The translations under genes were made by a program, and so were the position numbers. Of a DNA stretch of 64,000 bases, positions 13,204 to 14,113 are shown piece after piece. Origin of the DNA: Eledone cirrhosa (lineage: Eukaryota); the NCBI GenBank assembly GCA_964016885.1, contig CAXHJY010000158.1, positions 1 to 64,000 on the forward strand, in the 5' to 3' direction. Position 1 is the stretch's first letter. Each line of letters opens with the position of its first letter. The notes below the pieces were generated by a model. The model worked only from the letters and a program-made list of their open reading frames with translations, was not told the DNA's origin and did no database searches.

Positions 13204-13343
13204 TCATATATATATATATATATATATACAAACATACATTCATATATATATATATATATATTCATTCTCATCTCGGGAACAATTTTGAATAGCGCTAGTT
13301 CGTAATTTAAACTCGGGAATTTTATATTCTCCGAGTGAAAAGA

Positions 13344-13430
13344 ACCTTCTGACGAGAGTTTATCTTTGCAATGGAAGGCTGCAAGGACTGTCCATTTATG
13401 TTTGAGACTCGAAACCGATTCGGTAAAGGT
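13344..13430 (+). ncRNA. Intact type I hammerhead ribozyme motif
   Basis: acctt-CTGACGA-gagttt...agactc-GAAA-ccgattcgg-TA-aaggt. Confidence 0.88.
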
Positions 13431-13829
13431 AACCATAGTGAGTACAGTGAATTTTTTGAAATTTATTTTGAAACTTTTTCTTATTTGCTAAACCTTAATT
13501 ATTTATGTTCTGGCTCGTTAATTTATTAACCTGTCATTGAACCACATTGGCATATGGTTGGACAATACAAGTGTCCCTGGACGCTTTTTGTGTGTAGGGA
13601 TATATACTTTATTATTATTATTCTCCTCTTGGTCGAGATAAAATTTGGTCATTTTGACTGCTGCTATTTATAGTGGTAGTAGACTGACCTCCCTGCCTTT
13701 GCTTCTATCTTTACACACGGCACTGGACAGAATTGCTTCCACATCATTCATTCTCATCTCGGGAACAATTTTGAATAGTGCCAGTACCTAATTTAAACTC
13801 GGGAATTTTATATTCTCCGAGTGAAAAGA

Positions 13830-13916
13830 ACCTTCTGACGAGAGTTTATCTTTTCAATGGAAGACCGCAAGGACTGTCCATTTATTTTTGAGACTCGAAA
13901 CCGATTCGGTAAAGGT
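13830..13916 (+). ncRNA. Intact type I hammerhead ribozyme motif (second tandem copy)
   Basis: Core and stems identical to 13344-13430; substitutions fall in loop II. Confidence 0.88.
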
Positions 13917-14113
13917 AACCATAGTGAGTACAGTGAATTTTTTGAAATTTATTTTGAAACTTTTTCTTATTTGCTAAACCTTGATTATATATGTTCCGGC
14001 TCGTTAATTTATTAACCTGCCATTGAACCACATTGGCATATGGTTGGACAATGCATGTGTCCCTGGACGCTTATTGTGTGTAGGGATATATACTTTATTA
14101 TTATATATATATA

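Follow-up and report, generated by a model that had tools for sequence, protein, structure and literature searches.

The window analysed here is a stretch of 64,000 nucleotides of Eledone cirrhosa DNA, to which all positions refer. It contains an insert of 844 bases (13260-14103) made of a direct repeat with a spacing of 486, at 13260-13617 and 13746-14103. Upon pairwise alignment, the two copies differ by 15 substitutions over 358 nt, without any gap (95.8% identity). On the + strand, the layout is A(358)-B(128)-A'(358): segment A (copy 1, 13260-13617), which is pseudo-LTR (pLTR)-like and likely a 5'-truncated upstream unit; segment B (13618-13745), single copy, which completes the 486-bp unit and whose joint to a following A is found in sequencing contigs (see below); and segment A' (copy 2, 13746-14103). 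A preliminary description had called this structure a tandem dimer. The direct repeat with its two hammerheads holds, but the dimer is not full: B is present once and the insert amounts to 1.74 units, i.e. a partial tandem. The insert is set in a (TA)n tract. It begins in the (TA)n of a minisatellite and finishes in ATT/TA repeats, A' itself ending in (ATT)n/(TA)n, after which comes a tRNA-like SINE; A begins with ATTC and closes in ATT repeats. No target-site duplication was readable in the TA tract flanking the insert.

The unit is AT-rich (GC = 0.36) and no further copy of it was found elsewhere in the 64-kb window. As initially proposed, there is no convincing ORF: none of at least 120 aa lies inside the insert, the 128-nt B segment has none, and stops occur in all six frames within one unit. 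Although a unit length that is a multiple of 3 (486) would allow a rolling-circle ORF, these stops in every frame exclude one. The insert is not an autonomous Penelope-like element (PLE) either, as a reverse transcriptase (RT) and GIY-YIG ORF between the pseudo-LTRs is absent, the intervening B segment being 128 nt long and ORF-less.

The window as a whole is repeat-rich, with an RVT_1 match in 10 of the 18 ORFs scanned and many remnants of LINE-type reverse transcriptases. One LINE ORF (58333-61533, +) is apparently intact and codes for 1,066 aa with an AP endonuclease, an RT and a PHD finger; its best database relatives are only 51-54% identical, and several broken copies are present. A tRNA-derived SINE family is found at 14113-14460 (+), 11860-12225 (-), 17287-17694 and 55015-55072 (-). 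The insert lies between inverted SINEs, since one of them adjoins it in the same TA tract and an inverted copy, 97% identical, lies 1 kb before.

Each copy of the repeat contains a type I hammerhead motif on the + strand: hammerhead 1 at 13344-13430, recognized by descriptor and by folding, and hammerhead 2 at 13830-13916, recognized by descriptor. In hammerhead 1, helix I is at 13344-48/13426-30, the core at 13349-55, helix II at 13356-61/13405-10, GAAA at 13411-14 and helix III at 13414-24. Both copies have the CUGACGA...GAAA...UA arrangement, with a helix I of 5 bp (ACCUU/AAGGU), a helix II of 6 bp, and a helix III of 3 bp (CCG/CGG, 3-nt loop) plus A15.1-U16.1. The descriptor thus finds in both the hallmarks of type I (CUGANGA, GAAA and UH, three helices, open helix I). 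The cut site is GUA, and H17 falls at 13425 and 13911, so that cuts are predicted after the same two positions as in the preliminary description. On both strands of the 64 kb, the strict type I descriptor matched only twice, both times in the insert. When one unit was shuffled 20,000 times with its dinucleotides preserved, no shuffle matched as strictly and 1 matched loosely. Two intact hammerheads 486 bp apart in a direct repeat, as first described, are therefore confirmed by descriptor and alignment. No antisense hammerhead was found in the insert. Helix III is near-palindromic, self-pairing being predicted at -14.3 kcal/mol versus -2.0 as a hairpin; a dimer option mediated by helix III has been described for metazoan hammerheads (PMC4209133).

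The unusual part of the motif is a 43-nt extension of helix II (13362-13404, +), which is predicted to form an 8x8 U-rich internal loop followed by a distal helix with GCAA as its tetraloop. Changes between the two ribozymes had been said to be confined to loop II. They do cluster there, 4 of the 15 differences being in the 43-nt insert and none in the 44 core and stem positions, but the region is actually an internal loop and a distal helix capped by the tetraloop, and the sparing of core and stems between two copies is not significant and may be due to chance (P=0.13). Among the 40 of 105 family variants listed, one falls in core and stems, versus 3.6 expected (P=0.11). Core conservation is thus weak evidence for hammerhead function. 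In the same 40 of 105 variants, the distal helix is kept, including a double change from U-A to C-G at a loose contig end in run X6. Rfam reported neither motif, at gathering score or with E up to 10, and returned only the head of the tRNA-like SINE and chance matches; the miss is likely due to the 43-nt insertion in helix II.

Further hammerhead-like motifs lie in the window, and Rfam reported none of the five seen in all. A second, unrelated element of 167 bp occurs at 57424-57590 (+) and 10519-10685 (-), its two copies being 97% identical and each set in (TA)n. Its core, CUGACGA, has an additional A; helix I measures 8 bp, helix II about 15 bp, and helix III is a palindromic UGCGCA. The element resembles the 3' end of a PLE or a monomeric mini-retrozyme, and went unreported in the Rfam search. 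A third hammerhead-like motif, with CUGAUGA at 57237 and a 7-bp helix I, belongs to an element with a long inverted repeat (57160-57385, +). The related segment 1536-1670 is cut within helix III and carries its own inversion, like PLE ends.

The unit 13260-13745 was found in sequencing runs of three organisms, and we then considered contigs from 4 of the 9 listed runs (X1, X4, X5 and X6), aligned to it. Contigs matching one unit numbered 1,932 in X1, 6 in X4, 11 in X5 and 17 in X6; these are contig counts and not copy numbers. X1 possibly comes from another individual or a related species, because it contains 52% of words. The end of B was joined to the start of A in 9 of 13 joints, represented by 16 contigs in X1, one in X5 and one in X6 (3 of the 4 runs), and the X1 joints show several different junction sequences. 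In a contig of X4, 13600 is followed by 150 other letters and then by 13266, i.e. a unit of about 485 with a diverged B, and one X4 contig has a perfectly palindromic helix III. Because these head-to-tail joints recur across runs, the family as a whole repeats by this ORF-less unit of 486 bp, which is no accident of this locus. It is an abundant multicopy non-coding repeat family.

This bears directly on another interpretation, in which the repeats are pseudo-LTRs of an ordinary coding PLE family and the locus arose by a single internal deletion, or consists of two truncated ends, and is not an element in its own right. Such a reading has some appeal: summed contig depth in X1 is about 5 times higher for A than for B (medians 70,160 vs 14,299, a rough measure that gives no copy number), as expected of truncated PLE 3' ends, and the intron-like signals described below are usual content of a PLE 5' UTR. 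However, a one-off deletion would not produce a B-to-A joint that recurs with varied junctions in X1 and is seen again in X5 and X6, X4 has an equally long unit whose B has diverged, and no ORF was tied to any of the 18 loose ends listed out of 156, on contigs that are short. We consider this interpretation improbable. That the unit is a satellite-type repeat spread at the DNA level, by unequal crossing-over or local duplication, the locus being a local tandem duplication, is very improbable: rare alleles common to both copies would fit local duplication equally, and local amplification of such units is discussed by Li et al. (10.64898/2026.07.22.740005), but the copy is isolated in 64 kb, inside a TA tract and unequal at its two ends, and both inverted junctions and ends in TA occur among the family contigs.

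The family also informs on the age of this copy. At the 8 of 15 differing positions for which a family variant is listed, the majority letter is always that of copy 2, and at 6 of those 8 copy 1 has a letter making up at most about 2% of the X1 depth. The other 7 differences, for which no family variant is listed, may be private to copy 2. T13591 is common to A and A', and the family has C at this position (99.7% of depth in X1; also X4 to X6). Because T13591 is shared, A and A' would come from one template or one local array, and the sequences fit a history of one such origin followed by about 2% decay per copy. A mixed template could also account for them, since 13296 and 13368 differ at sites polymorphic in the family. 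The locus is likely a decaying insertion rather than a source locus.

Regarding the RNA that such a repeat would produce, the isolated motif has the hammerhead as its lowest-energy structure. In longer contexts, the pairing probability of the hammerhead helices I and II is at most 0.07, and a forced hammerhead lies above the minimum by 0-3.5 kcal/mol for copy 1 and 0-7.8 for copy 2 (8 contexts). A stable hairpin directly upstream of the ribozyme (13311-13336, +, and again at 13797-13822) has a pair probability of 0.81-1.0 in all four folds. The predicted 486-nt circle folds at -124.5 kcal/mol, with a z of -5.2 relative to its own shuffles; on the + strand, z is -5.7 for B+A' and -3.1 for unit 1, compared with -1.6 for the - strand and +0.1 to -2.6 for 5 control stretches.

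Directly 5' of helix I, the segment GAAAAGA (13337-13343, +) could pair with 13363-13369, part of the helix II internal loop, as either a pseudoknot or an inhibitory helix. The pairing is 7/7 Watson-Crick in copy 2, where GAAAAGA is the unit's only 7-bp partner for the internal loop, and has one mismatch in copy 1. Such a 7-bp complement is found in 0.25% of random flanks, in a test designed post hoc. Within the hammerhead fold, the pairing may act as a pseudoknot that ties helix I to helix II, a model to which we give a little less than an even chance; without the pseudoknot, GAAAAGA pairing belongs to the masking fold. Among the 40 of 105 family variants listed, no covariation was seen. The mismatch of copy 1 lies at 13368, where the pairing T makes up 59% of depth in X1 and 0 in X6, a common family allele breaking the same pair, and none of these 40 variants is a compensating change at 13338.

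Several traits of the insert recall Penelope elements. PLE insertions are 5'-truncated partial tandems, often with an inverted copy and a bias for (TA)n (PMC8557442). Here, we found TA targets, ends situated about 175-190 nt beyond the cut, inverted junctions and intron-like signals, and the layout of a non-autonomous PLE (partial tandem, inverted 5' copies, (TA)n targets) is observed when locus and family contigs are taken together. In particular, an X6 contig exits the element into (TA)n at 13598, one strand-changing joint was seen in X1, and a loose end in X5 corresponds to B inverted (19/22 match). The ends about 175-190 nt past the cut adjoin a stem-loop predicted near the 3' end of A (approximately 13571-13605, +; the X6 exit falls in it), a candidate region for an internal start of reverse transcription. 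For the Anolis PLE, it has been reported that the endonuclease prefers ATT, and that its RNA is reverse-transcribed from an internal point beyond the hammerhead on the 3' side, which sets the genomic 3' end (PMC11167929).

A predicted retained spliceosomal intron of 293 nt (13438-13730, +) crosses the A/B border. Its signals are a GTGAGT donor at 13438, a CTGAC branch site at 13684 followed by 24 nt of which 21 are pyrimidines, and a CAG acceptor at 13728-30. Both signals occurred in order in 0.12% of 5,000 shuffles, with thresholds picked after sequence inspection. PLEs have an intron in their 5' UTR, which in Chlamys-3_cRei crosses the border between pLTR and body (PMC8557442). Past the acceptor, where the ORF would start in a coding element, the unit continues into the next A. 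Among family variants of the donor, purine-purine changes at +3/+4 are common, and +2 is altered in one X5 contig. No spliced joint was found among the 13 joints, which come from runs none of which is on record as RNA.

The window contains a likely 5'-truncated PLE of another family (53784-54813, +), with a 174-aa frame that is closed by a stop and in which a Cys motif (CxxxxCxxC) lies ahead of a GIY-YIG-like motif, and with a 42-bp terminal inversion. Its 3' UTR has a lone CUGACGA at 54594 and a donor-like GTAAGT site; by its motifs, the element is Neptune-like. The GIY-YIG-like ORF (53788-54312) had no Pfam, PDB or longer-protein match, and an atlas search led to eukaryotic clusters, some with GIY-YIG in 13-18% of their members. 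The 486-bp unit has no significant likeness to this fragment (best E 0.08). As a likely PLE endonuclease fragment is present in the window, a PLE-type partner probably exists in the genome; neither in the window nor at the 18 of 156 loose contig ends listed was a coding partner linked to the unit.

The element shares with animal non-LTR retrozymes (PMC7229834; 10.64898/2026.07.22.740005) a non-coding unit, repeated in tandem, that carries a single type I hammerhead, a GC content below 50% (36% here), the lack of LTR ends, multiple copies and a well-folded predicted circle; it also has at least 2 consecutive hammerheads, by which the preprint defines 'active' elements. It differs from them by a unit of 486 bp, above the 150-450 bp of PMC7229834 and within the 51-972 bp of the 2026 preprint, by the 43-nt helix II extension in place of the usual short loop, by a hammerhead predicted to be masked in the circle, whereas it is predicted free in most metazoan circles, and by the intron-like signals within the unit. 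With hammerhead PLEs (PMC4209133; PMC8557442; Anolis PAc, PMC11167929), it shares the partial tandem, the 5-bp helix I, the long helix II, the near-palindromic helix III, the TA/ATT target, inverted junctions in the family, an end downstream of the cut, and a predicted intron that, like the one of Chlamys-3_cRei, crosses from pLTR into body. In contrast to these PLEs, the unit has no RT or GIY-YIG ORF, and in contrast to minimal PLE hammerheads, the typical extra base between A9 and G10.1 is missing and helix III could form in the monomer.

According to Perreault et al. (2011, PMC3088659), about 40% of hammerheads have a contact between the helix I flank and the helix II arm. These pseudoknotted hammerheads likewise have a 5-7 bp complement linking the helix I flank to unpaired bases of the helix II arm; here, the contact would involve an internal loop within the extended helix II; no covariation was seen, and one of its pairs is lost in a common family allele. 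Plant LTR retrozymes (PMC4918200) show the same repeat-spacer-repeat arrangement with a hammerhead in each repeat, but theirs is type III and ours type I, the TG...CA ends are missing here, and our spacer is part of the tandem unit. A plant-type LTR retrozyme is ruled out by the type I motif together with the ATTC start and ATT-repeat end. A literature search yielded nothing on this element, on cephalopod hammerheads or on spliced retrozymes in the text available; the supplement of PMC7229834 and one file of PMC4209133 could contain relatives. A 2026 octopus repeat annotation counts 31 Penelope-like families, and the word hammerhead is absent from its accessible text (PMC13282606). Viral contigs gave no match, and metagenome contigs none to the two-part hammerhead pattern. 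The single metagenome match to a 20-nt pattern, in marine contig L001 (5001-5020), was rejected as a 22-nt chance match with no hammerhead and no further likeness.

We propose that the insert is probably a non-autonomous Penelope-like element. In other words, it would be an animal non-LTR retrozyme, with a predicted self-cut 486-nt circle and a putative coding PLE partner. The tandem unit, the hammerhead motif, the absence of ORF, the many family copies and the TA flanks are all direct observations. The preliminary interpretation is partly supported. It had called the element a retrozyme, and this agrees with a non-coding, tandem, multicopy unit having one type I hammerhead each and with a strand-specific fold (z of -5.2 vs -1.6). 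It had also set retrozyme against Penelope pLTRs as alternatives; this opposition does not stand, because the evidence points to both, a Penelope-type element without ORF. The two alternatives are largely the same thing, and Li et al. reached the same Penelope-type conclusion for vertebrate retrozymes in their 2026 preprint (10.64898/2026.07.22.740005).

In the proposed mechanism, an internal promoter would drive transcription across tandem units, and some transcripts would self-cleave after A13425 and A13911, as monomer or as dimer via the near-palindromic helix III. The two predicted cuts would release a monomer RNA of 486 nt (13426-13911, +), which a host RtcB-type ligase would close into a 486-nt circle. 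The GIY-YIG endonuclease of the coding PLE partner would nick TA microsatellites, and its reverse transcriptase would copy the RNA, beginning within the unit near 13600-13617 and continuing for more than one unit. The insert reaches 166 nt ahead of the first cut and 192 nt past the second; because it spans both cut sites, its template would have been a circle (1.74 turns) or an uncut multimer, and not a linear cut monomer. Coral, mussel and axolotl retrozymes, which have a similar layout, yield abundant circles by self-cleavage of tandem transcripts and closure by a host ligase (PMC7229834). On this model, we slightly favour the idea that a stable circle is made from the family; for this particular locus, a stable circle would be less likely.

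The main competing explanation agrees with the non-autonomous Penelope-like element on the identity of the insert and differs on its RNA: the unit would be a Penelope-type passenger propagated from uncut tandem transcripts, with an inherited and mostly silent hammerhead. The absence of a stable circle, which is the part peculiar to it, appears only somewhat less probable than an even bet. It fits the alternative fold that masks the core, and an insert spanning both cut sites. Only one of nine predicted retrozyme dimers was cleaved in vitro in Xenopus, leaving 8 of 9 uncleaved (10.64898/2026.07.22.740005), and PLE hammerheads cleave weakly (PMC4209133) or only with protein (PMC11167929): cleavage by the Anolis PLE hammerhead is protein-dependent and dispensable for insertion, with no RNA-seq read ends (PMC11167929). 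On the other hand, helix III here exceeds that of minimal PLE hammerheads in length, the correct fold is the minimum-energy structure of the isolated motif, and the coral, mussel and axolotl retrozymes of similar layout do give abundant circles (PMC7229834).

A bolder version of the Penelope-like element, which we regard as unlikely, would combine these features. In an ORF-less Penelope, the 5'-UTR intron would lead to two circles, one of 486 nt, mobile, and a spliced one of 193 nt, the ribozyme being a new pseudoknotted build of the hammerhead, in which the internal loop of the extended helix II pairs with the sequence preceding helix I, that Rfam misses and that maybe hides other animal families. 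The unspliced 486-nt circle may contain the reverse-transcription start, and the 193-nt spliced circle may have the whole ribozyme without being reinsertable.

The value of the finding is modest, as the class is already known. It adds one more retrozyme family, with clear Penelope-type marks and in an invertebrate genome, to a picture in which the tests of the 2026 preprint were confined to vertebrates, and it shows that Rfam screens overlook such hammerheads. If the intron and the pseudoknot are true, the family would connect the circles of retrozymes with the retention of introns in Penelope elements, which is so far unexplained, and would offer a small and cheap system in which to ask whether the Penelope reverse transcriptase copies circles or uncut multimers.
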